This document shows, in pieces, positions 4,427-42,959 of a DNA stretch of 64,000 bases. Source of the stretch: an uncultured Lentimicrobiaceae bacterium (lineage in GTDB: Bacteria > Bacteroidota > Bacteroidia > Bacteroidales > UBA4417); contig CAYQTT010000014.1 of assembly GCA_964420555.1 (NCBI GenBank), positions 23,686 through 87,685 on the forward strand, given 5' to 3'. Every line of letters begins with the position of its first letter. Within the stretch, counting starts at the first letter, position 1. The position numbers were made by a program, and so were the translations under genes. Below the pieces are notes generated by a model. That model worked only from the letters and a program-made list of their open reading frames with translations, had not been told where the DNA came from and did no database searches.

Positions 4427-5089
4427 ATGATTCAAGCACATCCAACAAATAAAGGTACTGGTATTGAAATATATGGAGATTATGGGGATTTGTCAAATCT
4501 TTATGAAACCGTTCGTAAAATAGCACATAGATCAGAAGAGTATGACGCTACATTTAAAGGTCAATTCCAAATACTTATGAATTTTGCGTATGAGATACGA
4601 AAAGCATATTCAAATGAAAGGCTTTACCAGAAGATGTCGTATGATTCTGATCATGACGTATACTATTTTGGCTTTCAGTATCTTTGGACAGATTTATTAT
4701 TTACGATATCAGCATTAAGATATAATGCCGGCTATGTCCCTTTAACCGAATTAGATCAGGCTACTTTATACTTACTCGAATTCTTTACCAAAAAAGCACT
4801 TATTGAGTTTGATCCTCAAGGTGCTGAAAATATTCAACATTTCATTGGGCAATGATTGGATACAAACGATGAATTAATTTTCCTTATTAATGGAGCAATA
4901 GACTCAGAATATTTGTCTGAGAAGCCTTCTATAAGAAGGTTTAGAAATATCCCAAATCTCCTTATTAGTTTTTCAAGCCATCTTGATAAATATAGAAGGT
5001 TTAAACTGGATTTACAGATACGGGCTGATGAATTAAATTGCGGAATCCTGGATATTGAATATGAAAACTTACCAGATGTGATTTGGTAG
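4427..5089 (+). pseudogene. DUF6904-like protein interrupted by an in-frame TGA at 4853-4855
   Basis: ORFs 4427-4855 and 4856-5089 are in the same frame, separated only by one TGA (CAA TGA TTG GAT). N-terminus GTGIEIYGDYGDLxxLYETV recalled for this family. Confidence 0.55.
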
Positions 5090-5729: not shown

Positions 5730-6311
5730 ATGATCATAGATACTACCAGAGATTCAATTTTAAGTGTAGCAACCAGGTTGTTTAGTCGTTTTGGGTTTCA
5801 TAAAACTTCTATGGACGAAATTGCTAAAATTGCCAGGAAGGCGAAAGGATCTTTGTATTATCATTTTGCTAGTAAAGAAGAGTTATTCAAAGAGGTAGTA
5901 TCAATGGAAATGGTAAACCTCAAAAACCAATTATCCCTTATAATTAGTAATCCTGATTTAAGCGCTGCGTTGAAAATCAAGGAATATCTTATTAAAAGAA
6001 TGGAAGTTATAAATACTGCTGCAAATTATCATGAAATACTTAGAGCTGACTTCTTTGAACACTTCGATTTCATTGATGATTTACGGACTCAATTAGATAT
6101 CTGGGAAAAGGAAAATCTGAAAAAGATTATTGTACAAGGAGTCGACAGTGGTGAATTCTCTAATATTGTAGATATTGATATTTTAATCGATATGTTACTT
6201 ATGACGCTGAAAGGATTTGAGATACCATTCTTCCTGCAAAGCAAATATGAGAAATATGCTCCTTATTTTGATGGTTTAATGGGAATAGTAATAAAAGGAA
6301 TGGCAAAATAA
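5730..6311 (+). CDS. TetR/AcrR family transcriptional regulator
   Basis: N-terminal HTH (GFHKTSMDEIAKIARKAKGSLYYHFASKEELF). Confidence 0.92.
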   Translation: MIIDTTRDSILSVATRLFSRFGFHKTSMDEIAKIARKAKGSLYYHFASKEELFKEVVSMEMVNLKNQLSLIISNPDLSAALKIKEYLIKRMEVINTAANYHEILRADFFEHFDFIDDLRTQLDIWEKENLKKIIVQGVDSGEFSNIVDIDILIDMLLMTLKGFEIPFFLQSKYEKYAPYFDGLMGIVIKGMAK

Positions 6312-25013: not shown

Positions 25014-25451
25014 TGCTAATTTGTTGCTATACATGTTTTACTCCAAACCTATTCCAGTTTTATTTTTTATTTCATTCACGATGGAGAGTCGTTTTGTTTT
25101 ATTAAATAAAAATATTTTGGATTCATAGTCATTCATTAACGTATTGAAATATTGATTATAATGTGAATAATCAATACGTTGTGATCTTATTTTCTTACAA
25201 CTATCATCTTTCATGATTTGTAATAGGCCCAAGGCTAAGTGATTGCATTGTGAATATTGGCCTAAACGTTATAGATTTATTGAATATCAAAGAGATCTAT
25301 TGCAATTCTATTGCAGGAGATAATTATAATGAAAAATGCAGCTTGCCTGAAATAAAGTAAACTGATTGATGAATAGAAATTAAGAAGTATCCTATATTTG
25401 TTGAGGCATTAAGCGAATGCCATTGTAATTTATAAAGAATTCCATATCAAG

Positions 25452-28400
25452 ATGAAGTTTTTCCAGAATTCCGTACTCAATAAACATCTGAAAGCACAGG
25501 ACACTCAAGCTATAAAAGCTGCCTACGCAAAGTTCACAGCTCATTTTCATGATGCCGGAATACAGGAAAACATACGTAACAGCAAGGAAGAGCAATACCA
25601 GGGGGAGTTTCTGATTGATTTGTTTGTTAATGTGCTGGGCTATACCAAGAACCCGGCACCAAATTTCAATATTACTACCGAATATAAAAATGTAAAGGAC
25701 AGTAAAAAGGCAGACGGCGCAATTATTCTTCCGCGGGAGCATGCTCCCACGGTAATTGCGGTTATTGAACTTAAAGGAACAGAAACCACTGATTTAAATC
25801 GAATTGAAACCCAGGCTTTCGGATATAAGAACAATCAGCCCGAATGCGTATATGTGATCACTTCCAATTTCGAAAAGCTGCGTTGCTATATCGATAACGC
25901 GATTGAGAATATTGAGTTCAACCTGTTTACGCTTACCGAAAAAGAGTTTGAATTGCTGTGGCTGTGCCTGGCATTTGTAAATATTGAGAAAAATCTAGCT
26001 AAGCGGATAAAAGATGAATCGGTAAGCCAGGAAGATGTTATTACCAAAAACTTGTACAACGATTATTCGCTGTTCAAAAGGGAACTGCACCAAAACCTGG
26101 TGGCGCTCAATCCGGATCATGATCCATTAACACTTTTCAAAAAATCGCAAAAGCTGTTGGACCGGTTCCTGTTTCTCTTTTTTGCCGAGGACAGGCAACT
26201 GTTGCCGCCTAATTCGGTGCGACTTATACTGGACGATTGGCGCGAGCTGCAAGTCAGAGACGTGGAAATAGCCTTGTATGCCAGGTTTAAAAAGTATTTT
26301 GAATACCTTAATACAGGCTTTAAAGGAAAACGCTACGATGTATTTGCATACAACGGCGGTTTGTTTAAAACCGATGAACTGCTGGATGGTTTGAAAATAG
26401 ATGATGAGTTGCTTTACAGACATGCAATGAAGCTTTCAACGTATGACTTTGTTAGCGAAGTGGATGTAAATATTCTGGGTCATATCTTCGAAAACTCTTT
26501 AAATGATCTCGACGAAATAAAAGCACAACTCGAAGGGCAGCAGGTGGATAAAGCCAAAAGCAAGCGCAAAAAGGAAGGCGTTTTTTATACGCCCAAGTAT
26601 ATTACGAAGTATATTGTCGATAATACGGTAGGGAAACTTTGCACTGAGAAAAAAGCCGAAATCGGGCTTATTGAAGAAGAGTTTATCACCGACCGGAAAC
26701 GCACCAATAAAACCAAGCAGCCTTTATTTGATAAGCTTACTGCCTACCGCAACTGGCTTTTGCAACTCACCATCTGCGACCCGGCCTGCGGATCAGGAGC
26801 GTTCCTGAACCAGGCGCTCGACTTCCTTATCAATGAACACCGCTATATTGATGAATTGCAGGCCAAGCTTTTCGGTGATGCGATGGTGCTGAGTGATTTT
26901 GAAAAGAACATTCTTGAAAATAACCTGTTTGGAGTTGATTTAAACGAGGAAAGCGTTGAGATAGCCAAGCTCTCCTTATGGTTGCGTACAGCGCAGCCTA
27001 ACCGCAAACTAAACGATTTAAATAACAATATCAAATGCGGCAACTCGCTGATTGATGATCCGGCTGTGGCTGGTGACAAGGCTTTTAACTGGCACAATGA
27101 GTTTCCTTCTGTTTTCGCTAAAGGTGGATTTGATGTGATGCTTGGGAATCCGCCGTATGTGCAGCTCCAAAGTATGGGCGAAATGAGTGATATACTCAAA
27201 AATTGCGGTTACGAAACTTTTGATAAGGGTGCCGACCTGTATTGCATTTTTACCGAACGTGGCTATCAATTACTCAAAAATGGTGGTGTGCAATCATTTA
27301 TTATGCCTAATAAATGGATGTTGGTTGCTTATGGTAAACCACTTCGCAAATTCTTGTCAAAAACAGGCTTGTGCCAGGTGTTAAACTTCGGTGACATACA
27401 ATTCTTTCAGGAAGCTACAACTTACGTCTGCATTTTCGTTACACAAAAAAACAAGCCATTCGATAACGTTAAAGTATTGTCACTTAATCAGAATACTTAT
27501 CATGGAGACTTTTTGACGGAGGCAGCAAGCAACATTTACAACTATAGAGCATCCAAATTTGGTGATGAAGAATGGAGTATACAACCTTACAAGGATGCTC
27601 AAAAGTTGGAGCAGATGAAATTAAGGGGCATTGAACTAAAAGATTTGCCAGTAAGCATTAACTATGGGATAAAAACAGGTTTTAACGACGCTTTTTTTAT
27701 TGATGAAAAAACGCGGAATAAGTTGATTGCTGCCGATGGCAGTAGTGCAGAACTTATTAAGCCAATGGTGCGTGGAAGAGATATTTCAGCATATGGAATA
27801 ACTGGTTTTGAATATTTGATCGGCACATTCCCTTCTCTAAAATTGGATATTGAACATTATCCGGTCATCAAAAAACACTTGCTTTCATTTGGATATGACC
27901 GACTGAACCAAACCGGCGAAAACGGTGCCCGCAAAAAGACCAATGGCAAGTGGTTTGAAACACAAGACAGTATCAACTATCATGAGGAATTCGCCAAACC
28001 TAAAATCATCTATCCAAATATGACTTCTGTTTTCCCATTTATACATGATGAAACGGGAATGCTAACAAATCAGAAATGTTTTATTCTAACAGCACATGAT
28101 GATTCTGTCTCATTATTGTTCTTAACAGCTATTTTCAATTCTTCATTGGCAAAGCTTTGGATATGGTATAATTGTCCCGAACTTCAAGGAGGTACTCGCG
28201 AAATCAGTAAAGTATATTTCGAGCATTTCCCCGTTCCACAAGCTAACGAAGAACAATCGGCTATGCTTGCACATTGCACAATTGAACGTACCCGATTAAC
28301 TGCCAGCCTGGAAATCCTTACCTCAAAATTCCAGCGTACTATCCAGCGTAAATTTAATCTGGAGGAATTGCCAGGCAAATTGCAAAACTGGTATTTACTT

Positions 28401-28613
28401 TCCTATACTGAGTTTATTACCGAACTGGCAAAAAAGAAAGTTAAACTATCTCTTTCGGAAGAAGCCGAATGGGAAGCTTACTTTTTACAGGAAGCAAAAA
28501 AAGCACTTGAGTTTAAATCTGATATCGATAAAACTGATAAGGAAATTGACAGGATGGTATATGACTTGTATGGGTTGACGGAGGAGGAGATAGGGATTGT
28601 GGAGGATAAATAA
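25452..28613 (+). CDS. Type IIG-like fused restriction endonuclease / N6-adenine methyltransferase
   Basis: N-terminal ADG...VIELK nuclease, DPACGSGAFL and NPPY MTase motifs, TaqI-C-like target recognition region. -7 box TATATTTG at 25393-25400. Confidence 0.9.
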   Translation: MKFFQNSVLNKHLKAQDTQAIKAAYAKFTAHFHDAGIQENIRNSKEEQYQGEFLIDLFVNVLGYTKNPAPNFNITTEYKNVKDSKKADGAIILPREHAPTVIAVIELKGTETTDLNRIETQAFGYKNNQPECVYVITSNFEKLRCYIDNAIENIEFNLFTLTEKEFELLWLCLAFVNIEKNLAKRIKDESVSQEDVITKNLYNDYSLFKRELHQNLVALNPDHDPLTLFKKSQKLLDRFLFLFFAEDRQLLPPNSVRLILDDWRELQVRDVEIALYARFKKYFEYLNTGFKGKRYDVFAYNGGLFKTDELLDGLKIDDELLYRHAMKLSTYDFVSEVDVNILGHIFENSLNDLDEIKAQLEGQQVDKAKSKRKKEGVFYTPKYITKYIVDNTVGKLCTEKKAEIGLIEEEFITDRKRTNKTKQPLFDKLTAYRNWLLQLTICDPACGSGAFLNQALDFLINEHRYIDELQAKLFGDAMVLSDFEKNILENNLFGVDLNEESVEIAKLSLWLRTAQPNRKLNDLNNNIKCGNSLIDDPAVAGDKAFNWHNEFPSVFAKGGFDVMLGNPPYVQLQSMGEMSDILKNCGYETFDKGADLYCIFTERGYQLLKNGGVQSFIMPNKWMLVAYGKPLRKFLSKTGLCQVLNFGDIQFFQEATTYVCIFVTQKNKPFDNVKVLSLNQNTYHGDFLTEAASNIYNYRASKFGDEEWSIQPYKDAQKLEQMKLRGIELKDLPVSINYGIKTGFNDAFFIDEKTRNKLIAADGSSAELIKPMVRGRDISAYGITGFEYLIGTFPSLKLDIEHYPVIKKHLLSFGYDRLNQTGENGARKKTNGKWFETQDSINYHEEFAKPKIIYPNMTSVFPFIHDETGMLTNQKCFILTAHDDSVSLLFLTAIFNSSLAKLWIWYNCPELQGGTREISKVYFEHFPVPQANEEQSAMLAHCTIERTRLTASLEILTSKFQRTIQRKFNLEELPGKLQNWYLLSYTEFITELAKKKVKLSLSEEAEWEAYFLQEAKKALEFKSDIDKTDKEIDRMVYDLYGLTEEEIGIVEDK

Positions 28614-28815
28614 TTGAGCTTTTAAAATGCGATACAAACATGCTTGTAAATATTTATAAACTATTTGCCATACCTGCTTTTATTTCATTAATATTGTAGT
28701 GTTCAAGCGATTAGAGTATTGTTAATTTGTAGATGTTTGAACTATCATAAGCTCTTTGGATTTAGGCTTTTTACTCGTCTTATACCTGCATAGGCAAATC
28801 AATAAATCTGGTACA

Positions 28816-29454
28816 ATGGAATTTTCTGATTTTACAATTAGGTTAATAATAATCTTAATTCCTGGAGCAATCGCAACGCTAATTATTGAATCAATAACAA
28901 TTCATAAAAGTTGGTCGCACCTTAGATTCACTGTCAGTTCAATAATTTTAGGTGGTACATCATTCGGTATTTTACAGCTTTTGTATTGGGGATTCCAACT
29001 TTATCAAAGTAGATGCATTGATATTAAATTTGAAAATTTGCAGACCTGGAAAAGCATCTTCAAGAATGAAAATGCGTTGAATCCAATTGAAATAATTCTA
29101 AGCGTACTTATATCTATCGCTCTAAGCTATTGCGTTTCATACATAATACAACATAAGATTCTCTTCAAGATTGCTAAAAGATTTAATGTATCTAGAAAAT
29201 ATGGAGATGATAGTCTCTATTCACATTACTTGAATGCCGATGAGGTCGATTGGGTTTATGTTAGGGATAAAACCAACGGAATGACATACTTAGGACAAGT
29301 TGATTCTTGGTCGGAAGATGATTCAAATAAGGAATTGTTACTCAGAAATGTCACTGTATTTAAGTATGAAAACAGCGACGAGCTCTATAAAATAAAACAA
29401 ATTTATCTCAAATTTCATGAGAGAGATATTATAATCGAATTACCTGAATACTAA
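28816..29454 (+). CDS. DUF6338-like membrane protein
   Basis: LIPG in TM1, three to four TM helices, C-terminal WVYVRD...YLG...WS beta domain; ATG at 28816. Confidence 0.6.
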   Translation: MEFSDFTIRLIIILIPGAIATLIIESITIHKSWSHLRFTVSSIILGGTSFGILQLLYWGFQLYQSRCIDIKFENLQTWKSIFKNENALNPIEIILSVLISIALSYCVSYIIQHKILFKIAKRFNVSRKYGDDSLYSHYLNADEVDWVYVRDKTNGMTYLGQVDSWSEDDSNKELLLRNVTVFKYENSDELYKIKQIYLKFHERDIIIELPEY

Positions 29455-29470
29455 CTAAAATTTAATTGCT

Positions 29471-29620
29471 ATGGCAGATCGAGATCACAAACCAGCAGTG
29501 CCTCTGCATGAAGGTGTTGAAAAAGCGGAATCTAAACCTGTAAGAGATACGCGGCCACCACCACCGCCACCACCACCTGTTAAACAAGATAACATACCGC
29601 CATCTCCTAAAAAAGATTAA
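29471..29620 (+). CDS. 49-aa polyproline peptide (not in ORF track)
   Basis: MADRDHKPAVPLHEGVEKAESKPVRDTRPPPPPPPPVKQDNIPPSPKKD*, 16 bp after the DUF6338 stop; the Pro run uses mixed codons (CCA/CCG/CCT). Confidence 0.6.
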   Translation: MADRDHKPAVPLHEGVEKAESKPVRDTRPPPPPPPPVKQDNIPPSPKKD

Positions 29621-29665
29621 TCTTTTGACGAAATTGGTAGTTTTCATGTTTAAAACCTACACTGC

Positions 29666-29696
29666 CCGGCTCAGGCAAATCTTTTGCTTGAGCCGG
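29666..29696 (+). terminator. Stem-loop after the polyproline ORF
   Basis: CCGGCTCAGGCAAA-TCT-TTTGCTTGAGCCGG; no U-tract, so function is uncertain. Confidence 0.5.
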
Positions 29697-29783: not shown

Positions 29784-30149
29784 ATGCAAAACGATTCAGT
29801 TTATGCTTATCTTCAGGGTTCCAATTATGAAATATTCATGCACAGAGCCTTCAGAACATCCAATCGTTCCAAGCCTGGCATGGATGGATCAACAATGAAA
29901 AATCTAATTGATGCTGAAAATGGCGAATCATGGGTTAGACACCTTGGCTCATTTGAGAAACAACTAACTCAAATAAAGTTCTATATGAATAAAGCATTAG
30001 ATAAATATTTGGACATGAAACTGCCGGTTGAAAATCTTGTAGCTGTAAGCTTAATGAAATTGAGATTAGATCAAGCTAATTCTTCAGCTGTAATAATCAA
30101 TATAATTGATGAAACAATTGAATTAACGCAGATAGTAAAAAATTATTGA
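29784..30149 (+). CDS. Hypothetical helical protein
   Basis: 121-aa ORF with ATG start in an AT-rich context; no motif recognised. Confidence 0.55.
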   Translation: MQNDSVYAYLQGSNYEIFMHRAFRTSNRSKPGMDGSTMKNLIDAENGESWVRHLGSFEKQLTQIKFYMNKALDKYLDMKLPVENLVAVSLMKLRLDQANSSAVIINIIDETIELTQIVKNY

Positions 30150-30214: not shown

Positions 30215-31426
30215 ATGATATTTATGAATACAGTTAAAATTGGAGATACGTTTGAGAAAAAATCACATGATGTGATTGTAAAGGCTATAGAGAATGGTGA
30301 ATTGGGTATCTCTGAATCAGCATCAAGAGTATTTCAGAAAAAGGGTTATTATTCTCGTGACAGAGAGAAAGCTATAATATTTGATTTGTCAATTGAAGTA
30401 TGGCCTACAAATGCAGAAAGGTATACATTGCTGTATTTAATTGAATGTAAAAGTTCAAACTCAAAGAAAGTACCTGTTGATGATATAGAAGAGTTTTATT
30501 CCAAAATTATCCAAGTTTCCGGGGTCAATGTTAAAGGAGTCTTGATTTCTGACAATTCATTTCAGGAAGGAGTTGTGACTTTTGCAAAAAACAGAGGCAT
30601 CATGCTAATTGAAGTTAGCAAAATAGGAGAACATAATATTATCCTACACAGAACCAATCGGGGTATTGATGATATAAAAGACAAGGATATTGATTCAATT
30701 TTTGAAAAATTTATAAAAAGGGCTTTTGGGCCCCAAAAAATAGAAGGATTACAAAAACTATCATCAGATCAAATTGAAAATAAGGCAAATATTTTACATA
30801 GCGAATATTCAAGAAGCCGAAAACCAATTGTAATAGATGAGTTTATTGAATTTGTAACTCAAAAATATGGACTCAAGATTGATTTAATATGTGATCTGGA
30901 GACAATAAACGGGAAAAAGATTTTGGGATATTACTCAGTTAAGGAAAATACAATCTTTCTGGACCAATCACTTTTACTTACGAATCAAACAGCATTTGTA
31001 CTAGGTCATGAATTAGGCCATTTCTTTTTACATAAAGAATTGACTGTAAATCAGGAATTGTATAATGATTTTGAAGATTCAGAATATGATTTCTTTGCAG
31101 ACAAGCATATACTTAAAAACGACAAAAACTGGATCGAGTGGCAAGCAAATCGATTTGCGATCTCTTTGTTTTTACCTTCAGATTTGTTCCTTTATCATTT
31201 ATGTGACTACAGACAAAGTATCGGAATTAGTAGATACTTTCATATTTACTTGGATAACCAAAGGATTAATCAAGATGATTACAGGAAAACCGTTGATCAT
31301 CTGGCATACCTTTTTGGAATAAGTAAAACAGTCGTCAAGTATAGGATTGACGAATTAAAGATAATTACGCATGCAGAATCCAAGAATGATATTGGAAGTC
31401 ATATCAGAAGATTTCTGTTAGAATAG
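30215..31426 (+). CDS. Restriction-endonuclease-like domain fused to ImmA/IrrE metallopeptidase
   Basis: N-terminal FDLSIE...LIECKS and VPVDDIEEF (Mrr-like); C-terminal HELGH (HExxH) and EWQANRFA. Confidence 0.8.
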   Translation: MIFMNTVKIGDTFEKKSHDVIVKAIENGELGISESASRVFQKKGYYSRDREKAIIFDLSIEVWPTNAERYTLLYLIECKSSNSKKVPVDDIEEFYSKIIQVSGVNVKGVLISDNSFQEGVVTFAKNRGIMLIEVSKIGEHNIILHRTNRGIDDIKDKDIDSIFEKFIKRAFGPQKIEGLQKLSSDQIENKANILHSEYSRSRKPIVIDEFIEFVTQKYGLKIDLICDLETINGKKILGYYSVKENTIFLDQSLLLTNQTAFVLGHELGHFFLHKELTVNQELYNDFEDSEYDFFADKHILKNDKNWIEWQANRFAISLFLPSDLFLYHLCDYRQSIGISRYFHIYLDNQRINQDDYRKTVDHLAYLFGISKTVVKYRIDELKIITHAESKNDIGSHIRRFLLE

Positions 31427-33068: not shown

Positions 33069-36000
33069 TTAATCCATCCATCCCTTAAAATCTCTTTTCA
33101 TTTCATCTTGCATTTCCTTTTTTGACCATTCAATTTTTCGTTCCCAAATTTTTATGTGTTCGGCATAGTCAAGAGGATTAGGTAATGTACTTATCATTTC
33201 GATGATGGATTTCAAAAAGTTAATTTCTTCTTCAATTTTTGGGACCCGGCTACCATGTGAAATCCCGCTTTCTTCTAACCAAAGGTGATCAATAAATTCT
33301 ACATCCTTATTCAGTAGTAGAAACTCTTTTAGAAAACGTAAAATTTGATTTTTGAACCTATATGTAACTACATTTAAAATAATATGGATATGTTGCTCTG
33401 ATGAATAATTTTTGCGAATGAATTGACTGATGTAATCAAATACTTTTTCCAAATCAGTTCCACCGAATTTTAACCCTTTAAATAAAACATTTGCTTGATG
33501 CTCCCAACTGGAATAAATTGGAGCTTTTTTAATTATTATTTCTAATGCTTTATCTAGTATGACTACATATTCCGGTAAGTGCCAAACAAACGAAAGATTT
33601 AACTTGTCGAATTTAAATTCGAGAAAACTTATTTCTTTTGTAGTTTCAAGTAAATATTCGATTAAAAAATTATGATCTACTGAAGATATTGCCTCCATTT
33701 CATTCCCATTATGATCATAGTAGCCATCCCTTTTTCGTTGTAAATAATAAACCTGTTTGAGCAAACCAATATTGTCAACAAAGTGGTAAATGCACTTTTT
33801 GCAAATTTCATGGTCAAATGAAATATCTGAATTCTCAATTTTCGATAAGAGAATCTCAGTAATATAGGTTAAAATATTTTTATGACTTTCTGCTGAAGGT
33901 GGCAAAGAAGACTTTAAGTTATTAAACTGCTTGTCAAATTTCAAGATAGTTTCAGGATTATACATATAAAATCTTCCACTAACTGAAAAAATGAAACCAA
34001 TATACTCTTGTAAAAAGAATTCATCGATGTAATCCGGATCTATAGCATCAAAAAATGTTTGCTTCCAAAATTGCTTTTGTTTATATTCAAATCTATTAAG
34101 ATGTAGGTATAGCTCCTTTAGATTAACTAATTTTTGGCGGATCGGATAAAAGATAATACTTCCGTAATTTAAATCAAATGAATATTTGCCTAGCATCATC
34201 AGTTCAAGCGATCTAAAGTAAAATTTAGACTCGGTTTCAGCAATTATATGAAACAAGTAGTTCAAACTAGTTTCTATCCAATATGAATCATGTGTTTTAG
34301 CAGCCGCTTTATAAATTAGATCTAATTGGCCAAAAGTTCCCTCAATAAAGCTAAAATCTTTGCCAGAAATGTAATTTTCAATTTCGGATTTTCGTTTCTG
34401 CTCCTGTTCATCATATGTAAGTTTTTCATCATCAAATTCTGAACTGAAAATTTTTGCAATGAGCATGGAATCAGATTTCAAAAACAGAGTCCAATCATTC
34501 AATAGTTGAATGTTATGCTCTTTCAATGTTTCGACGTAGGCAAATACTAATTTACAATGGGAGAAATTTTCAGGATCAAGATATTTAAGTATAAAACCAG
34601 TAATCAATATTTGTTCTTCTTCATAAACACTTGAATCTATGCTCCCTGAAGTCCAGGCATATTTATGAATGGCTTCAAGAACTTTATCTTCGTTTTCATT
34701 GAACAGAGTTATCAGTCTCGATAAAATCTTTTTCCTTAATTCCATTAAAGAATGAGTTTTAATCAAAACAAAATTGTAAATTATCATCTGGCCATTGCCT
34801 TTACTTTCTGTTTGATGAAAATCCCATGCAAGTAAAGAAGGTGCAATTGAAAGAAATAATTGGTCTGAAATTGTTTTTTCTCTATCAGTGAAATCATTGC
34901 TGTCAAGTATGTCAATCAGGATAGATTGACGTGGATAAGCAAATCTATAATCAAAGCGGTGAAAAGTTAAATTTTCTTTTAAATGTTTTAATGTTTCAGG
35001 TATTCTTGAGGGCTGACGAAACATCAATTTAAGTCCTAACCCGATTGCATCTTTTGTGTAAGGAGTATTATGATTCCAAAAATTTAAAAGTAATTTGAAA
35101 TATTCTGGAGCCCAGACAAAGTCGTTTACCTCATATGTATACTTAATGTCTAGAAGTTCGGTATTCTCTTTAATCAAGTTGTTTATCCAATTTTTAACAA
35201 ATAATAGTGTATCTACTTCCTTATAAAACCAGAATATTTCAAAAAATTTGTATAGGCCGTTTGTATTTACGTTTAATTTATTTTGAACTTCAGCAATCAA
35301 ACTTGTTATTCGATCTTTTAACTCTTCGTACCCAAAAGTATTTATCAAATCAATGAGTGTTTTATTGATTTTTGTATCATATTTTTCAATAAATGATACA
35401 AGCCAATCAGAATAATTGATAGATGCAGAATTTTCATCGATAAAAGTCTTATAAAATGCATAAGTTGCCAGAACCTGGTCCGACATTTTTGCAGCCTCTT
35501 TATAAAACACATCAACTAATTCAGCTTTCTCTAACTCGATAAAAGTTTCCCAAAGGTCATTCCAATTTACCTTAAAATGGATCTTCAACATCTCGTTAAC
35601 TTCTTCATTACTTCTGTCTAATACACCAAAAAATGAAAGCAATCCAAGGGCTCTGAGGTTGTCTGGCTTTTCTAAGAAGGAAATATCTGTTTTTACTTTC
35701 TGAAAATATTGGTCATATAGTAAAAAGACATTTTTGAGAATACTTATATCATCGTTTTGAAGAATGGAAGAAGTTGCCATCAAAGCGATACGACTATTCC
35801 CTTTAGATAAGGAAACAATTCTTTCCATAACTAATTGATCCAAAGATATGTTATCAGGTAATGATTTATTTATTATTTCAATTAGTTGTTTATCTTCGAA
35901 GGGCTTTATAATAATTTCATTATAAATAGCATTGAATAAGAATTTATCAAGATCTTTTCGGACGTAATCTCTAACCGTAATTATTATTTTGGTTGAGTTT

Positions 36001-36863
36001 TTATCTCTGCTATTAACAAACTGCAATAAATAATCTAAATTCGGTAAAGACTTGTTTGCGTCATCAAAAAAAATGATGTACTTATTGGTAGGCATAATAA
36101 AGGTTGTCAAATCTTCCCATAATGGAACCGGGCTACTCGCAATAACTCTAGGCTCATAATTATATTCGCTTTCAAAAATATGAGCCAAATGAACTGCAAG
36201 TTTTGATTTGCCTACACCTTGATTCCCAGTAATAATTAGGATGTCGTTTAACTGTAGAAAATCTCTAGCTTGATTAATTTCATCTTCACGTCCAGCAAAA
36301 GGATTGGTTAATGAAGGCTGAAGACCTTTTTCAGTTGTTTTAAGAAAATCAGGTAATGTATACAGTGTCCCTTTTGTTGTTTTTACACCTGGGATATATT
36401 TGTCTGCTAATCCAGGATAATAAACCAATCGAAAAGGTATTTCCTGTATTGAATAAATGACTAATTCAGTTTGAGGATTAAATTGCTTGATTTTTTCCTT
36501 TAACTCATTATGTTCAGAAGGATTAATTTTTTCAGTGAAAGCTAAAATTATTTTTGATATTTTAGAATTGTCAATTCTTGTGCTCTTTATATCAAAGCAA
36601 TGCTCAACATCATTTTTAAGTTTTTTAAAGAATGTTTCACCTTTGCTAAGTCTTTCTTGAGTTGTACATTCACAGAATATGTAATTATCTCCATCCTCAA
36701 AAAAACTATCGGGACGTCCTTTGCTTGTTTTGTTTTTTCCAATTACTGAACCAGGTGAACCGATAAAGCGATAGCCTTCCAGGTGCAGAAGGTGATTCAT
36801 CAATTTTTGAAATGTTGCTTGATCAATACTGGATAAGTGCTCTTCAATTATTGTAGTAATCAT
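33069..36863 (-). CDS. NLR-like STAND ATPase with N-terminal PD-(D/E)xK-type nuclease (Avs-like)
   Basis: GRPDSFF...IFCECTT nuclease-like motif; Walker A GNQGVGKS; Walker B IIFFDD; IIITVR sensor; GNSRIA; ~800-aa helical C-terminus. Confidence 0.75.
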   Translation of the reverse strand: MITTIIEEHLSSIDQATFQKLMNHLLHLEGYRFIGSPGSVIGKNKTSKGRPDSFFEDGDNYIFCECTTQERLSKGETFFKKLKNDVEHCFDIKSTRIDNSKISKIILAFTEKINPSEHNELKEKIKQFNPQTELVIYSIQEIPFRLVYYPGLADKYIPGVKTTKGTLYTLPDFLKTTEKGLQPSLTNPFAGREDEINQARDFLQLNDILIITGNQGVGKSKLAVHLAHIFESEYNYEPRVIASSPVPLWEDLTTFIMPTNKYIIFFDDANKSLPNLDYLLQFVNSRDKNSTKIIITVRDYVRKDLDKFLFNAIYNEIIIKPFEDKQLIEIINKSLPDNISLDQLVMERIVSLSKGNSRIALMATSSILQNDDISILKNVFLLYDQYFQKVKTDISFLEKPDNLRALGLLSFFGVLDRSNEEVNEMLKIHFKVNWNDLWETFIELEKAELVDVFYKEAAKMSDQVLATYAFYKTFIDENSASINYSDWLVSFIEKYDTKINKTLIDLINTFGYEELKDRITSLIAEVQNKLNVNTNGLYKFFEIFWFYKEVDTLLFVKNWINNLIKENTELLDIKYTYEVNDFVWAPEYFKLLLNFWNHNTPYTKDAIGLGLKLMFRQPSRIPETLKHLKENLTFHRFDYRFAYPRQSILIDILDSNDFTDREKTISDQLFLSIAPSLLAWDFHQTESKGNGQMIIYNFVLIKTHSLMELRKKILSRLITLFNENEDKVLEAIHKYAWTSGSIDSSVYEEEQILITGFILKYLDPENFSHCKLVFAYVETLKEHNIQLLNDWTLFLKSDSMLIAKIFSSEFDDEKLTYDEQEQKRKSEIENYISGKDFSFIEGTFGQLDLIYKAAAKTHDSYWIETSLNYLFHIIAETESKFYFRSLELMMLGKYSFDLNYGSIIFYPIRQKLVNLKELYLHLNRFEYKQKQFWKQTFFDAIDPDYIDEFFLQEYIGFIFSVSGRFYMYNPETILKFDKQFNNLKSSLPPSAESHKNILTYITEILLSKIENSDISFDHEICKKCIYHFVDNIGLLKQVYYLQRKRDGYYDHNGNEMEAISSVDHNFLIEYLLETTKEISFLEFKFDKLNLSFVWHLPEYVVILDKALEIIIKKAPIYSSWEHQANVLFKGLKFGGTDLEKVFDYISQFIRKNYSSEQHIHIILNVVTYRFKNQILRFLKEFLLLNKDVEFIDHLWLEESGISHGSRVPKIEEEINFLKSIIEMISTLPNPLDYAEHIKIWERKIEWSKKEMQDEMKRDFKGWMD

Positions 36864-37457: not shown

Positions 37458-38246
37458 TCAAAGCTTTTCAAGAATCACAGCCCTGATCAATTTAAAAGCG
37501 GTATCCGGATTATACTCTGTATTAATCCTCAAGAGTCCCAGGATATCTTTACGGAATTCCAGATCGTTCATTTTGTTTTCCATATTGCTGATAAAGTCAT
37601 CACGCCGGATGGTTCGCCCTTCACTTTTCATGTATTCCTGATACGTTTTTATTATTAAGGCTATATCGGGATTGAGATTTGTGAGAGCATACCAAAGATC
37701 GAAGAGATCGCGGCCTTTGCGACGTTGATATAGTGCCCGGAGTTTTGTAGCCAGCAGTTCTTCAATTTTGTAAGTGCGGATATTGGCCTGCCCTGTAAAC
37801 CACGAATTGCTGATGTTCACTGGCATTTGATGATAACCCAGTACTGAAAAATGTTCACGGCAATTGATTTCAATTTTCAATTTCATTTTACGAACCGGTT
37901 CTGTTTCTGTGAGGTAGCGGTAATTCATTGTGGTCATGGAATCGCCCCTATCCACAGTGATTTTGCCATCAATGAAAGATAAAACTTTACGGAAGCGGGA
38001 AAGAACATCTCCAATCGGGGCCGGTGTTACCTGCACCAGGTCAATATCTTCGGAATACCTCACTTGTGGATGAAGCCATAATTTATGCAAAGCTGTTCCT
38101 CCGCGGAATGCAAGCTGTTCGGCCAGGAACTCGTCCTGATAGATAGCAATCAAAGCACGTTCGATAATAAGATCCTGTTCGACCTGTGCATCATCCGGCC
38201 ATTGGGCATTTTCCTTCCATTCGGTAATATAATTGCGTGGTATCAT
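37458..38246 (-). CDS. abiEii: AbiEii nucleotidyltransferase toxin
   Basis: QVEQDLII, AFRGGTALHK, RYSEDIDL, KLRALYQRRKGRDLFDL. Confidence 0.92.
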   Translation of the reverse strand: MIPRNYITEWKENAQWPDDAQVEQDLIIERALIAIYQDEFLAEQLAFRGGTALHKLWLHPQVRYSEDIDLVQVTPAPIGDVLSRFRKVLSFIDGKITVDRGDSMTTMNYRYLTETEPVRKMKLKIEINCREHFSVLGYHQMPVNISNSWFTGQANIRTYKIEELLATKLRALYQRRKGRDLFDLWYALTNLNPDIALIIKTYQEYMKSEGRTIRRDDFISNMENKMNDLEFRKDILGLLRINTEYNPDTAFKLIRAVILEKL

Positions 38247-39052
38247 ATGTCGCTTTCAACCTCCATATTTTTAATCAGTTTCCAGCGTTGGGAAACTTCC
38301 CCTTTTCGCTCTTTGCTTGTGGATAACGGAACCGGATGAATTTTTCGATCTGCTAACGCTTTTTCGACAGCGGCAGCCAGTTTTTCATTACCTAATTCAA
38401 TGTCCAGCAGATATCCTAGGCGCTGTATTGCAGCAGTAACCGGAAAACGTTTTGCAGTTTGTAACAAAACCGAAGGCTTCATTTCTTCAGCAAGCTCGCT
38501 AATAACGGCAGTTGCCCGATTGATAACCATCCAATTATTAAATAAAAGCAAATCAAGAGCGGTTAATTCCGGGGAAGAAACGTTAATATAACCGGCTTCG
38601 GTTTTTTTCTGGATGATATCGCTAACATCCCAGGAGTTTTTTACAAGGAAATTTATAGCAATCTTTCCAGTACTAATCTTACGCAATGCAGGTGGCCTGG
38701 TAATAATAAATGATTCCATAGGTTGCTGATGCGAAGATCCATGAAGAGCAGCCGCAGAAAGCAACCCTATATAATAAGGCTTTCCAAGCCATTTCATCAT
38801 CTGATCGATGAAGAAATACAAAGGGAGAATTCCCGAAGAAGCATACTCAGGCGGGATAACCACAAAGAAACCTTGCCGAACCTGTGCAATCTGGCCTTTT
38901 GATTTTAATCGGAAAAGGCTTTGGTTGATAGCATTTTCAGATATTGAGAATTTTGATCGCAGTTCATCCAGTGTGAAGGCATAGCGGCCTTTCCCTCTTA
39001 TTTTAAAGAGGTATTCCTGAATATTGGAAGCTGAAGCATGATCTATTTCCAT
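38243..39052 (-). CDS. abiEi: AbiEi antitoxin (type IV TA)
   Basis: wHTH start, YYIGLLSAAALHGSSHQ, VSSPELTALDL; 4-bp overlap with abiEii; probable start at 39052. Confidence 0.9.
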   Translation of the reverse strand: MEIDHASASNIQEYLFKIRGKGRYAFTLDELRSKFSISENAINQSLFRLKSKGQIAQVRQGFFVVIPPEYASSGILPLYFFIDQMMKWLGKPYYIGLLSAAALHGSSHQQPMESFIITRPPALRKISTGKIAINFLVKNSWDVSDIIQKKTEAGYINVSSPELTALDLLLFNNWMVINRATAVISELAEEMKPSVLLQTAKRFPVTAAIQRLGYLLDIELGNEKLAAAVEKALADRKIHPVPLSTSKERKGEVSQRWKLIKNMEVESDI

Positions 39053-39165
39053 ATTTGTGCGTAATTGCGTAATACTACGTTTTTCGTAATAATACGCAAA
39101 TGTAAACATTTTATTGTTGCGTTACTTAAAAGGATAAAATTAATGTACAAACCAGAGGTGATAAA

Positions 39166-40709: not shown

Positions 40710-42959
40710 TTAAGAAAGTGAGTCGTTGAATGGCAAATCTACCTGTATTTCAATAGGTTGGGCTGGTGAATTAGCTTCAGTTTTAGAGGCATTTCCCGAA
40801 AATTCTTCAATCATAGAGCGATTCCTAGATTCGACCTCTTCCCACTGAAGTTCATGGAGAGCATAAAGCAATTTGCCATTAGATTTAAACCGATGATAGT
40901 TGTTTTTGATAAGAGCTTTTCCAAGTTTGTTAACTGAACTATCGGAAACATTAATTTTAGCTTTATCAGCCAGTTTTGCCAGAATTTGTGATGCTGTCAG
41001 GAATACGTTTGCTTGCTCTTTTGTGCAAGACTCAAACCAGGTCAACAATAATTCTTCTTCAGGGGACCGAAGCTGGTACTGCTCATTGTTCTGGTTAATG
41101 GCTCCAATTTCATCCCGGTTGAACCAAAAGCGGAAACCGGACTTAAAAAGATGTAAAGCCTGGGAGTAAACATCGTTAAGAGATACTTTGTGGTCGTATT
41201 GAATATCAGTAACTTCGAAGGAAAGGAATCGACGGGAACCGGTTGTGTCGTTGAGAAATTGGGCAGTGTTTACACTACCGGCGAAGCTGGCACAACGTGG
41301 AAGTGTTTCGTTGTTATGTCCGTATGCCCGACGGATCCGGATATGAGTTTTAGTGATCAGCTCTTTTAAGCTGCCAATCTCACTTCGGTTCAGGTTTTCA
41401 AGCTCATCGAGATTTATTAACATGCATTCGGAAAGATGGATCAAGGTATCCTTGTTGTTGGGATTAATGGTTCCTGAGAAAAGGTACTGCTTTAATTCTA
41501 TTGGAATAAGATTTTCCATCCAGGTTGTTTTACCAACACCTTGCTTGCCGGAAAAGACGATTACTGTTTGGTTGATGGTGTGTTCGTCAAGGACACAACC
41601 AACCATTGCAACTAACCATTTTTTGAAGCAGGTGTGCCAGAGTTCCTGATGGGTGGTTGTGATGGTATCGGCAAGAAGGGCAATGTGATCGGTTTGTTCA
41701 TCCCAGAAAGGAAGGCTTTCAAAGTATGTTGTGAAGGGATTAAAGAGTTCGCAAAAGTCAGAATACAATAAATTCCGTAATCCGGACATATTGGTTTTGA
41801 CTTTGTTTTTAAGCAGTTCACGAAGCATTGAGTTTTCGATATAGTCGTTCACCTGGTGCCAGACTTTTTTAGTTATGAAACGATATTCAAGACGGCCAGT
41901 TATGGTATTGTTGCGGAAACGGTATTTGAGGAGAAGGAAGTTTTCTACTCGGTCGATGGCGGGGATACGTTTTTTAGGTGCTTCGTCTTCGGTATTTTCC
42001 TCTGTGGCAGCTGGAATAACCTCACCTCCCGGCCTCCTCTCCTGGAGGAGAGGAGATGACTCTGCTTCACTTTTTATGCCATGTTCAGATCTATTTTTAT
42101 AGGCACTATTTACAGCCGCCATAACTTCTTTCTCATCGAAGTTATAATCGGCCAGGATAAAGCCAAGAGCTGCAGCGAACTGCACTCCACTTCTATTCAG
42201 ATTGCAAGCCAGCTGATGAACAAAGTTATTGCGGCTGCCTGTGGTGAAAGATTCATTGTGTTCAGTGAGTTTGATGGAGTCGTGGTATATTTTCAGGTAA
42301 TCTTGCTGTGGAATTACTGTAGGCTTGACTTCACCATCTGGCTCTATTTTCCCGTCAAGCGGGGACTGGTTCTGAGTGTTAGGGCGTGAATCTTCGTTTG
42401 AACTCTTACTTGAAAGAGTATTTGTGAAAACTTGTGCATTAGGATTATGGTAAAGATCCGGATCAACGGACATGAAACAGAGCCGGGTGTAATCCTTACC
42501 AGATTTGTCGATAGGCAAACCGGTGAGTGATTCGTAGTAAGACTGAACAAGCAAAAAAGTATTCTTGTGCGTTGATGGTGTAGCCTGTGTTTGAACAAAA
42601 ACCTTGAGGCCGTTTCCTGAAGGGCTGATGAAAACTGCCATGGTAAATTGATCGTCCATGACCGATTCACGGCATTTTTTCAATTGTTCCGGACTGAGTT
42701 TGTCGAAGTCCAGTACAATGATGCCGGAATACTTTTTAAGAGTTTCCTGGTTGCGGCCACCTTCGAATTGACCGGAAGGTGTGAAAGCCAGTAATCCCTT
42801 CTTGGCTTTCTCGTACGATTCAAGCTTTTGCTCCTGCAGACACTTCCGGATATAAGTGACTGGTCCGCGGTACTTGCCGCTTTTGATATCAGTGAGTATA
42901 TCGACGAAGGGCTTATTCTCGGTTATGTTGGTAAAGTTTTGGAATATGGAGAGGTTCAT
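40710..42959 (-). CDS. VirE-family primase-helicase (BT4734-like N-terminus, SF3-like P-loop domain)
   Basis: FTPSGQF, SGIIVLDFD, FISPSGNGLK (primase-polymerase-like); GKQGVGKTT, INLDEL, DTTGSRRF. Confidence 0.88.
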   Translation of the reverse strand: MNLSIFQNFTNITENKPFVDILTDIKSGKYRGPVTYIRKCLQEQKLESYEKAKKGLLAFTPSGQFEGGRNQETLKKYSGIIVLDFDKLSPEQLKKCRESVMDDQFTMAVFISPSGNGLKVFVQTQATPSTHKNTFLLVQSYYESLTGLPIDKSGKDYTRLCFMSVDPDLYHNPNAQVFTNTLSSKSSNEDSRPNTQNQSPLDGKIEPDGEVKPTVIPQQDYLKIYHDSIKLTEHNESFTTGSRNNFVHQLACNLNRSGVQFAAALGFILADYNFDEKEVMAAVNSAYKNRSEHGIKSEAESSPLLQERRPGGEVIPAATEENTEDEAPKKRIPAIDRVENFLLLKYRFRNNTITGRLEYRFITKKVWHQVNDYIENSMLRELLKNKVKTNMSGLRNLLYSDFCELFNPFTTYFESLPFWDEQTDHIALLADTITTTHQELWHTCFKKWLVAMVGCVLDEHTINQTVIVFSGKQGVGKTTWMENLIPIELKQYLFSGTINPNNKDTLIHLSECMLINLDELENLNRSEIGSLKELITKTHIRIRRAYGHNNETLPRCASFAGSVNTAQFLNDTTGSRRFLSFEVTDIQYDHKVSLNDVYSQALHLFKSGFRFWFNRDEIGAINQNNEQYQLRSPEEELLLTWFESCTKEQANVFLTASQILAKLADKAKINVSDSSVNKLGKALIKNNYHRFKSNGKLLYALHELQWEEVESRNRSMIEEFSGNASKTEANSPAQPIEIQVDLPFNDSLS

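Follow-up and report, generated by a model that had tools for sequence, protein, structure and literature searches.

The closest described counterpart of the system reported here comes from a proteomics study of Pseudomonas (Stutzerimonas) stutzeri ATCC 14405, in which three small peptides, SEP1, SEP5 and SEP2, are encoded behind a DUF6338 gene and were detected by mass spectrometry with 44–114 spectra each (PMC10433244). These peptides are basic, 36–47 amino acids (aa) long and end in PPPPKK, PPPPPKRDSK and PPPPPKKGG, and the authors described them as unconserved outside the species and possibly of de novo origin (PMC10433244). A literature search on DUF6338 returned this paper as its sole match, and the Pfam entry for this uncharacterised integral membrane family (PF19865) gives neither a function nor a partner. 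The window analyzed here, a stretch of 64,000 nucleotides of an uncultured Lentimicrobiaceae bacterium (contig CAYQTT010000014.1), carries a comparable pair on its forward strand. A gene for a divergent DUF6338-family membrane protein of 212 aa (28816..29454, with its ATG at 28816 and its stop at 29452-29454) is followed, after a spacer of 16 nt (29455..29470), by a gene for a proline-rich microprotein of 49 aa (29471..29620; MADRDHKPAVPLHEGVEKAESKPVRDTRPPPPPPPPVKQDNIPPSPKKD) that lies in the +1 frame relative to the main gene. These positions are those given by the original prediction, all of which proved correct. The pair shares the gene order and peptide design of the P. stutzeri operon, including the Pro-Lys tail, and likewise has a Pro-rich open reading frame (ORF) of fewer than 65 aa on the same strand within ~50 nt of the DUF6338 gene end; the difference is that P. 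stutzeri has three tandem peptides and the window one. We find that the pair is almost certainly a mobile, self-contained two-gene unit, in which a membrane protein bearing an Sm-fold domain is accompanied by a microprotein that is under selection, always linked and in one case fused to it.

The two genes are consistently linked. A homologous ORF of 36-61 codons with its own start lies directly behind the main gene in 38 of 38 loci, the count covering all loci with readable downstream DNA. The loci were drawn from 16 homologues of a word-index search traced to their contigs, and from whole genomes, species-representative genomes (scanned with a 14-sequence alignment as query), metagenomes and plasmids. 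They span Bacteroidota, Ignavibacteria, Nitrospirae, Leptospiraceae, Gammaproteobacteria (Arenimonas, one gammaproteobacterial metagenome-assembled genome and a Vibrio plasmid) and Bacillus, with a Bacillus cereus plasmid as the second of two plasmids, and the identity of the main protein to that of the window falls to ~28% across them. The original prediction had asked whether an adjacent Pro-rich small ORF is consistently found near homologues, and the answer is yes; its description of a compact two-gene unit is likewise borne out by this linkage and by the 16-nt spacer. Moreover, the start of the small ORF falls within a stretch from 46 nt upstream to 30 nt downstream of the main-gene stop, in either alternative frame or, at locus L019, in the same frame as the main gene, and this proximity of start and stop suggests that the membrane protein and the microprotein are co-translated. 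A second weak match in the same genome (L011) is a fragment broken up by stop codons, lacks a Pro-rich ORF in its vicinity and is probably noise.

Linkage across phyla is not described in the P. stutzeri paper (PMC10433244), and it would correct the view that the peptides are species-specific and arose de novo. A profile built from 28 microproteins matches SEP1, SEP5 and SEP2 marginally (E 0.05, 0.16 and 0.84 at Z = 1000) and leaves two unrelated Pro-rich SEPs unmatched, and SEP5 (…QDGINVNPPAP…PPPPPKRDSK) resembles peptides of the type found at locus L012 (…NEGIIKKNVNPPP…). At L012 itself, two tandem paralogous microprotein ORFs (2181-2345 and 2358-2519; 54 and 53 aa) stand behind one DUF6338 gene, such that the number of small genes per DUF6338 gene ranges from 1 to 3 when P. 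stutzeri is counted.

Is the small ORF a gene at all? The case against it is the small size and low complexity of the ORF, together with a word-index protein search with the microprotein that returned the query alone, a result that is explained by the low complexity. Set against this are the presence of an ATG of its own at the same relative place in all 38 loci, the conservation of a non-repetitive motif and the way in which the sequence has diverged. In the four closest ungapped microprotein pairs, differences fall mostly at codon position 3 (for example 8/4/24 at positions 1/2/3), and each pair carries 10-17 synonymous codon changes, many of them in the proline run and the HEG motif. Eight successive CCN codons in DNA of ~35% G+C would be expected by chance at a probability of <1e-11 per position by our own estimate. 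Mass spectrometry also supports the analogous P. stutzeri peptides (PMC10433244). The notion that no gene is present here, and that the ORF is a chance frame across a C-rich regulatory sequence or the 3′ untranslated region, thus has a practically negligible probability and is refuted by the conservation data. The substitution pattern marks the microprotein as a real gene product under purifying selection. A natural fusion points the same way, as the database protein P0106 carries the membrane protein and the microprotein in a single reading frame (…IEVPINALEEKK-MEKAKKITEGQRKGLQKPVSEKPRPSSPPPPRKSKKTSK; microprotein profile E 4e-5). Four other homologues with long hydrophilic C-terminal tails (P0030, P0097, P0100 and P0128) were considered as fusions and rejected, given that none of them matches the microprotein profile and only P0106 does.

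The next question is which features of the microprotein are constant. An alignment of the 28 microproteins reveals, in order, a short polar N-terminus, a PLxEG-type motif, a Pro-rich stretch and a C-terminus of the P-P-x-P-K-K type, in proteins that are mostly basic, hydrophilic and rich in proline and lysine. In the window the N-terminal motif reads P-L-H-E-G-V-E-K (29501..29524, forward strand; family consensus P-[LI]-x-E-G-hydrophobic-x-K), and it is replaced in one flavobacterial subclade by G-E-S-K-N-S-S-N-K-P-K-P-T-I-S-R. The eight prolines of the window (Pro29-Pro36; 29555..29578, forward strand; CCA CCA CCA CCG CCA CCA CCA CCT) form a run whose length is clade-specific. The longest run varies between 2 and 10 across the family, with 6-8 prolines in close relatives of the window and 10 in Arenimonas, and it is three in 9 of the 28 microproteins and two in a further 7, so that even a run of at least three prolines is not conserved. 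As judged from this alignment, the window’s polyproline run is a clade-specific exaggeration of a Pro-rich segment and not a hallmark of the family. The original prediction had given the proline run a central part in two ways, either as an SH3-type ligand of the membrane protein or as an EF-P-dependent sensor of translation stress, and both proposals are weakened by this variation in length. The constant parts are instead the PLxEGxxK motif and the P-K-K end.

A point in favour of the second proposal is that runs of at least three prolines stall ribosomes in the absence of EF-P. Synthesis of the peptide would then depend on EF-P and on the capacity of the ribosomes, and the level of the peptide would report translation stress to the membrane protein. 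The long runs of the window, its close relatives and Arenimonas fit such a role, and every member of the family has at least a Pro-Pro. However, the run is only 2-3 residues long in 16 of 28 microproteins, including the whole flavobacterial subclade and the Vibrio and Bacillus proteins, and the constant features lie outside it. In addition, the proline codons end at 29578 and the stem of the downstream hairpin starts at 29666, which is too far for stalling to be coupled to termination. We therefore regard a stress sensor as improbable.

A third possibility is that the peptide is itself the active product, in the manner of Pro-rich antimicrobial peptides, and that the DUF6338 protein serves as its exporter or immunity protein. 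The basic, Pro-rich character of the microproteins would suit this role, and the P. stutzeri paper discusses Pro-rich small proteins as possible antimicrobials and mentions DUF6338 in biosynthetic clusters (PMC10433244). Nevertheless, no leader or signal, double-glycine site, ABC exporter or modification enzyme is seen in any locus, a three-helix protein is unlikely to be an exporter, and the P0106 fusion would tether the peptide to a cytoplasmic domain. Taken together, these points make an exported peptide very improbable.

The larger protein can be placed in a family only through its relatives. HMMER searches of 1.84 billion representative proteins, where a representative stands for a cluster at 50%, gave 914 relatives of the 212-aa protein at E <= 1e-3, nearly all of them 200-230 aa long. 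The original prediction had called the protein DUF6338-like, and this holds by homology and fails as a direct match. Neither the 212-aa protein nor a 232-aa version matches any Pfam model even at E = 10, so the PF19865 gathering cut-off is not reached, and a search of the window’s own genome at E <= 0.01 gave no PF19865 match. The longer version, which would start at TTG 28756, was rejected because all homologues begin at the equivalent of M-E-F/I-S (M-E-x-S/T). PF19865 is, on the other hand, matched by 22 of the 50 full-length homologues in alignment A1 (best E 8e-11), and a homologue 44% identical to the window protein (P0010) carries a precomputed DUF6338 domain, while the Vibrio plasmid homologue, 37% identical, bears the RefSeq name ‘DUF6338 family protein’. 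By homology to these bona fide members, the window protein is a divergent member of DUF6338; it shares their length and architecture and differs from them in lying on a divergent branch below the detection level of the model. Near-invariant positions in A1 are Pro16-Gly17 in helix 1, a Y-G-D before the helix of the Sm-like domain, Tyr158, Gly160, Glu173, Tyr191, Tyr197 and Ile207-Glu208.

One of these positions is affected in the Bacteroidetes bacterium GWA2_32_17 (locus L018, MENF01000106.1), where an in-frame stop (6049-6051) falls at the near-invariant Gly17 of the main gene. The microprotein gene of this locus is intact (54 aa, with proline runs of 7 and 8), and the database protein of the main gene (P0007) shows a tryptophan at the Gly17 position, having probably been called with a code that reads stop as Trp. 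The copy has been inactivated by a nonsense mutation, or else the stop is a sequencing error. Among 14 well-known control genomes, PF19865 is found above its cut-off in Haloferax volcanii alone, a genetically tractable archaeon.

The AlphaFold2 model of the 212-aa protein (mean predicted local distance difference test score, pLDDT, of 90.5) divides it into two parts. The membrane part (28828..29151, forward strand) consists of three long helices assigned by DSSP to residues 5-27, 35-64 and 90-112, and the C-terminal domain (29215..29439, forward strand) consists of a helix (134-140) followed by five strands (146-208). At this high model confidence, the N-terminal helix and bent five-stranded sheet of the domain conform to the Sm fold, and a Foldseek search of the PDB returned nearly exclusively Sm and LSm proteins for it, with E 3e-4 to 1e-2 and target-normalised TM-scores of 0.63-0.74. 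The matches include an archaeal SmAP (5mkl, E 3e-4), Lsm2-8 (target-normalised TM-score 0.72-0.74) and LSm14 in complex with a 4E-T peptide (6f9w). The original prediction of a transmembrane protein with a cytoplasmic beta domain, possibly of Sm-like fold, is thus supported by structural modelling; the cytoplasmic side is predicted from the Lys/Arg-rich segment that follows the third transmembrane helix, as the positive-inside rule would have it. Since the microprotein has no signal sequence, it would be made in the same compartment as the Sm-like domain, the cytoplasm. In A1 we also read an Sm1-like pattern, V-x-V-x-D-x-x-x-G-x-x-Y-x-G-x-V, within the domain.

The domain shares its helix and bent five-stranded sheet with archaeal SmAP, Lsm2-8, Hfq and the LSm14:4E-T complex (6f9w). 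Unlike these known Sm/LSm proteins, it is anchored in the membrane through three helices, it lacks the conserved Arg-Gly of the Sm2 motif and it has no sequence match to solved chains, as a profile search of all PDB chains gave nothing at E <= 10. A different comparison is with MscS-type channels, in which three membrane helices precede a beta domain classed as an Sm-like fold, an order that the window protein also shows. Unlike MscS, the window protein places a ~30-residue linker with two short helices between the third transmembrane helix and the beta domain and lacks an alpha-beta domain at its C-terminus; MscS chains are absent from the top 50 Foldseek matches, and Pfam gave no MS_channel match. 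No characterised system brings together an Sm fold held at the membrane and a microprotein dedicated to it. If the pair works as a unit, it defines a microprotein family that is often missed in annotation and a use of the Sm fold that has not been described so far, membrane-tethered and with protein rather than RNA as the likely ligand.

How might the two proteins work together? Sm proteins assemble into rings, and some LSm domains bind short peptide motifs instead of RNA. We hypothesize that the microprotein, which is probably disordered to judge from its composition and a low-confidence AlphaFold2 tail, docks on the Sm-like domain via its P-L-x-E-G-hydrophobic-x-K motif, its free Pro-Lys C-terminus or both. 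The Sm-like domains would assemble the three-helix membrane parts into a ring, and the microprotein would set whether that ring is active. On balance, a physical interaction between the two proteins is somewhat favored by analogy. In alignment A4, MAFFT placed K-P-L-H-E-G-F-E-K on strand 2 of the Sm-like domain (N-x-L-T-Y-H-G-x-V-E-S), which is probably an alignment artefact, although the L-x-x-G-hydrophobic likeness might point to strand mimicry. The role served by such a device could be abortive-infection-type defence or toxin-antitoxin-like addiction, in which a short-lived microprotein would restrain the membrane protein or act as a sensor. For the full proposal, which joins the linked pair, a microprotein-controlled Sm-like ring and a role in genetic conflict, we consider the chances to be even.

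The genomic surroundings bear on the last of these parts. The window’s pair belongs to the cargo of a Bacteroidales defence island, in line with the original prediction, and stands beside a type IIG restriction-modification enzyme (25452-28613) on its upstream side. Downstream lie a protein of 403 aa (30215-31426) with a C-terminal M78/IrrE-type peptidase domain (Pfam 1.4e-10), an HNH protein within the island, an nSTAND3 NTPase of 1264 aa (33069-36863; Pfam 1.1e-11), an AbiEii/AbiEi pair (37458-39109; 1.2e-37 and 4.6e-26) and a VapE/BT4734-type primase (40710-42959). Pairs elsewhere keep similar company in different arrangements. At L001 the pair lies 15 nt behind a restriction-modification enzyme that is unrelated to that of the window apart from an NPPY motif, at L004 it lies 11 nt behind AbiH, at L018 it follows a dCTP-deaminase-like gene, and on the Vibrio plasmid it forms part of a cassette array that also carries CcdAB, HigB, Phd and YoeB genes. 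The 72 flanking proteins of 20 loci share no common family. Many of them belong to conflict or mobility families (AbiTii, AbiEii, FRG, PLD, RelA/SpoT, DUF3800, relaxase, integrase, PDC-S15, PDC-S32, capP-like and RmrA-like). A conserved third gene was therefore rejected, given that the neighbours are heterogeneous and the restriction-modification enzymes of the window and L001 are unrelated, and this heterogeneity indicates that the pair is autonomous with no obligatory third partner. Its distribution is patchy: only 1 of 61 close relatives has the pair, and across the phylum it occurs in 7 of 401 genomes.

Because of this patchy distribution and the company of defence and mobility genes, a conflict function (abortive infection, exclusion or addiction) suggests itself from the sequence context, and we put it forward tentatively, as a possibility that falls short of even odds. 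The repeated adjacency to restriction, Abi and toxin-antitoxin genes makes the pair a candidate anti-phage or addiction system, and a function, once found, would annotate many hypothetical genes (914 representatives in at least six phyla and on plasmids). One full-length structural match is a protein of an uncultured siphovirus.

Several results weigh against this reading or against parts of the mechanism that it invokes. Over 30 loci, the identity matrices for main protein and microprotein are correlated with r = 0.60, a value attained in 0 of 2000 permutations, but the correlation stems from close relatives only, with r ~0 for pairs of <50% identity, and so it demonstrates co-inheritance and not co-evolution. 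A stop-read-through fusion of L019, the only locus with the two genes in frame, was modelled with AlphaFold2 as a proxy for co-folding, with the TAG read as Gly; its peptide part reached a pLDDT of 51-63, had no secondary structure and was left undocked, in a monomer whose alignment consisted of main-protein rows and gave the tail no depth. In Sm proteins that bind RNA, the Arg-Gly of Sm2 lines the uridine pocket, and by our own reading of A1 this conserved pair is absent from strands 4-5 of the domain. Both the assembly of a ring and an activity on the membrane are extrapolated from the fold alone. No relative was found by tblastn in 50,697 phage records, nor in IMG/VR with the patterns used, and PADLOC-DB 2.0 returned 0 families at E <= 0.1, for the membrane protein and the microprotein alike. 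Finally, some flanking genes are housekeeping genes, such as those for methionine sulfoxide reductase, PhoD and pseudouridine synthase.

The last points lead to the main alternative, in which the pair has no part in conflict and forms an accessory stress or transport device, for example a small channel with a gate or an Sm-like binder of RNA or protein anchored in the membrane, with the microprotein as a stoichiometric subunit; its location in an island would then reflect accessory DNA and nothing more. The three transmembrane helices and Sm-like domain do recall the core of MscS-type channels, housekeeping neighbours occur in several loci, and neither the membrane protein nor the microprotein has a match in Pfam, NCBIfam, PHROGs or PADLOC, and hence none to a known defence family. 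The P. stutzeri peptides, moreover, are abundant under ordinary growth (PMC10433244). A device for general physiology would, however, hardly be expected to be so patchy even inside a genus, with 1 of 61 relatives carrying it, or to be found on plasmids, within a cassette array and next to Abi and restriction-modification genes. The absence of MscS from the top 50 structural matches and the premature main-gene stop that is apparently tolerated in L018 also speak against it, and we regard a non-conflict function as rather unlikely.

Returning to a conflict role, it is instructive to compare the pair with toxin-antitoxin and abortive-infection pairs that combine a membrane effector with a small labile partner. 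Like them, the pair is compact, presumably coupled in translation, mobile and patchy in distribution, it resides among toxin-antitoxin and defence genes, and it shows an occasional fusion, P0106, and at L018 one copy whose larger gene may be inactivated. With type II toxin-antitoxin systems in particular the pair has in common that two small, adjacent and co-oriented genes lie on mobile DNA. It departs from them in that no recognised toxin or antitoxin family is matched in Pfam, NCBIfam, PHROG or PADLOC and no DNA-binding domain is found. Unlike in toxin-antitoxin pairs, the larger gene comes first, and the small partner has no DNA-binding fold.

A stronger version of the conflict role would make the pair a new class of two-component conflict system, in which the effector would be a membrane-anchored Sm-like ring that forms pores or disrupts the membrane and that the microprotein holds shut. 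The microprotein would be constantly made and rapidly turned over, and would bind the ring by its P-L-x-E-G-x-x-K motif. When a phage shuts off host translation, the effector would be freed and the infection aborted, and the forms with long polyproline runs would be the most sensitive. Such a system could be widespread in bacteria and have been missed since the small gene is often unannotated, and the DUF6338 gene of Haloferax volcanii would extend it to an archaeon. We consider this version speculative and unlikely as it stands.

Some neighbours and signals of the pair can be described more fully. On the Vibrio sp. SCSIO 43009 plasmid (NZ_CP071844.1, L035), the microprotein gene (4593-4727; MSDNQKRPINEGYSRNIQKGNNKPNSTSNIKPTKAPPTPKPKSN) is unannotated in RefSeq and overlaps the end of the annotated DUF6338 gene by 8 nt, and the pair lies between DUF3265 cassette-type ORFs and looks like an integron cassette. 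The M78/IrrE-peptidase fusion of the window matches PADLOC capP (1.3e-12) and is RmrA-like, with an N-terminal half that has no assignment and no HTH (helix-turn-helix) repressor gene seen adjacent to it; M78 and capP-like proteins are also found close to the pair at two further loci. Between the pair and this gene, directly after the hairpin, lies an ORF of 121 aa (29784-30149) without a match in Pfam, NCBIfam, PHROGs or PADLOC. Other loci do not keep this ORF beside the pair, and from this comparison it is probably separate cargo.

The unit is closed by a terminator-like hairpin (29666..29696, forward strand) with a perfect 14-bp stem and a 3-nt loop. Its predicted stability of -24.6 kcal/mol (z = -5.7) was reached by 0 of 200 shuffled sequences, and 11 of 32 related loci have a hairpin of comparable strength behind the small ORF. 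At the other end, the 200-bp gap upstream of the pair (28614-28815) contains no TAnnTTTG, the Bacteroidota -7 motif. This motif is present before the type IIG restriction-modification gene (25393-25400), and the pair may be co-transcribed with that gene.

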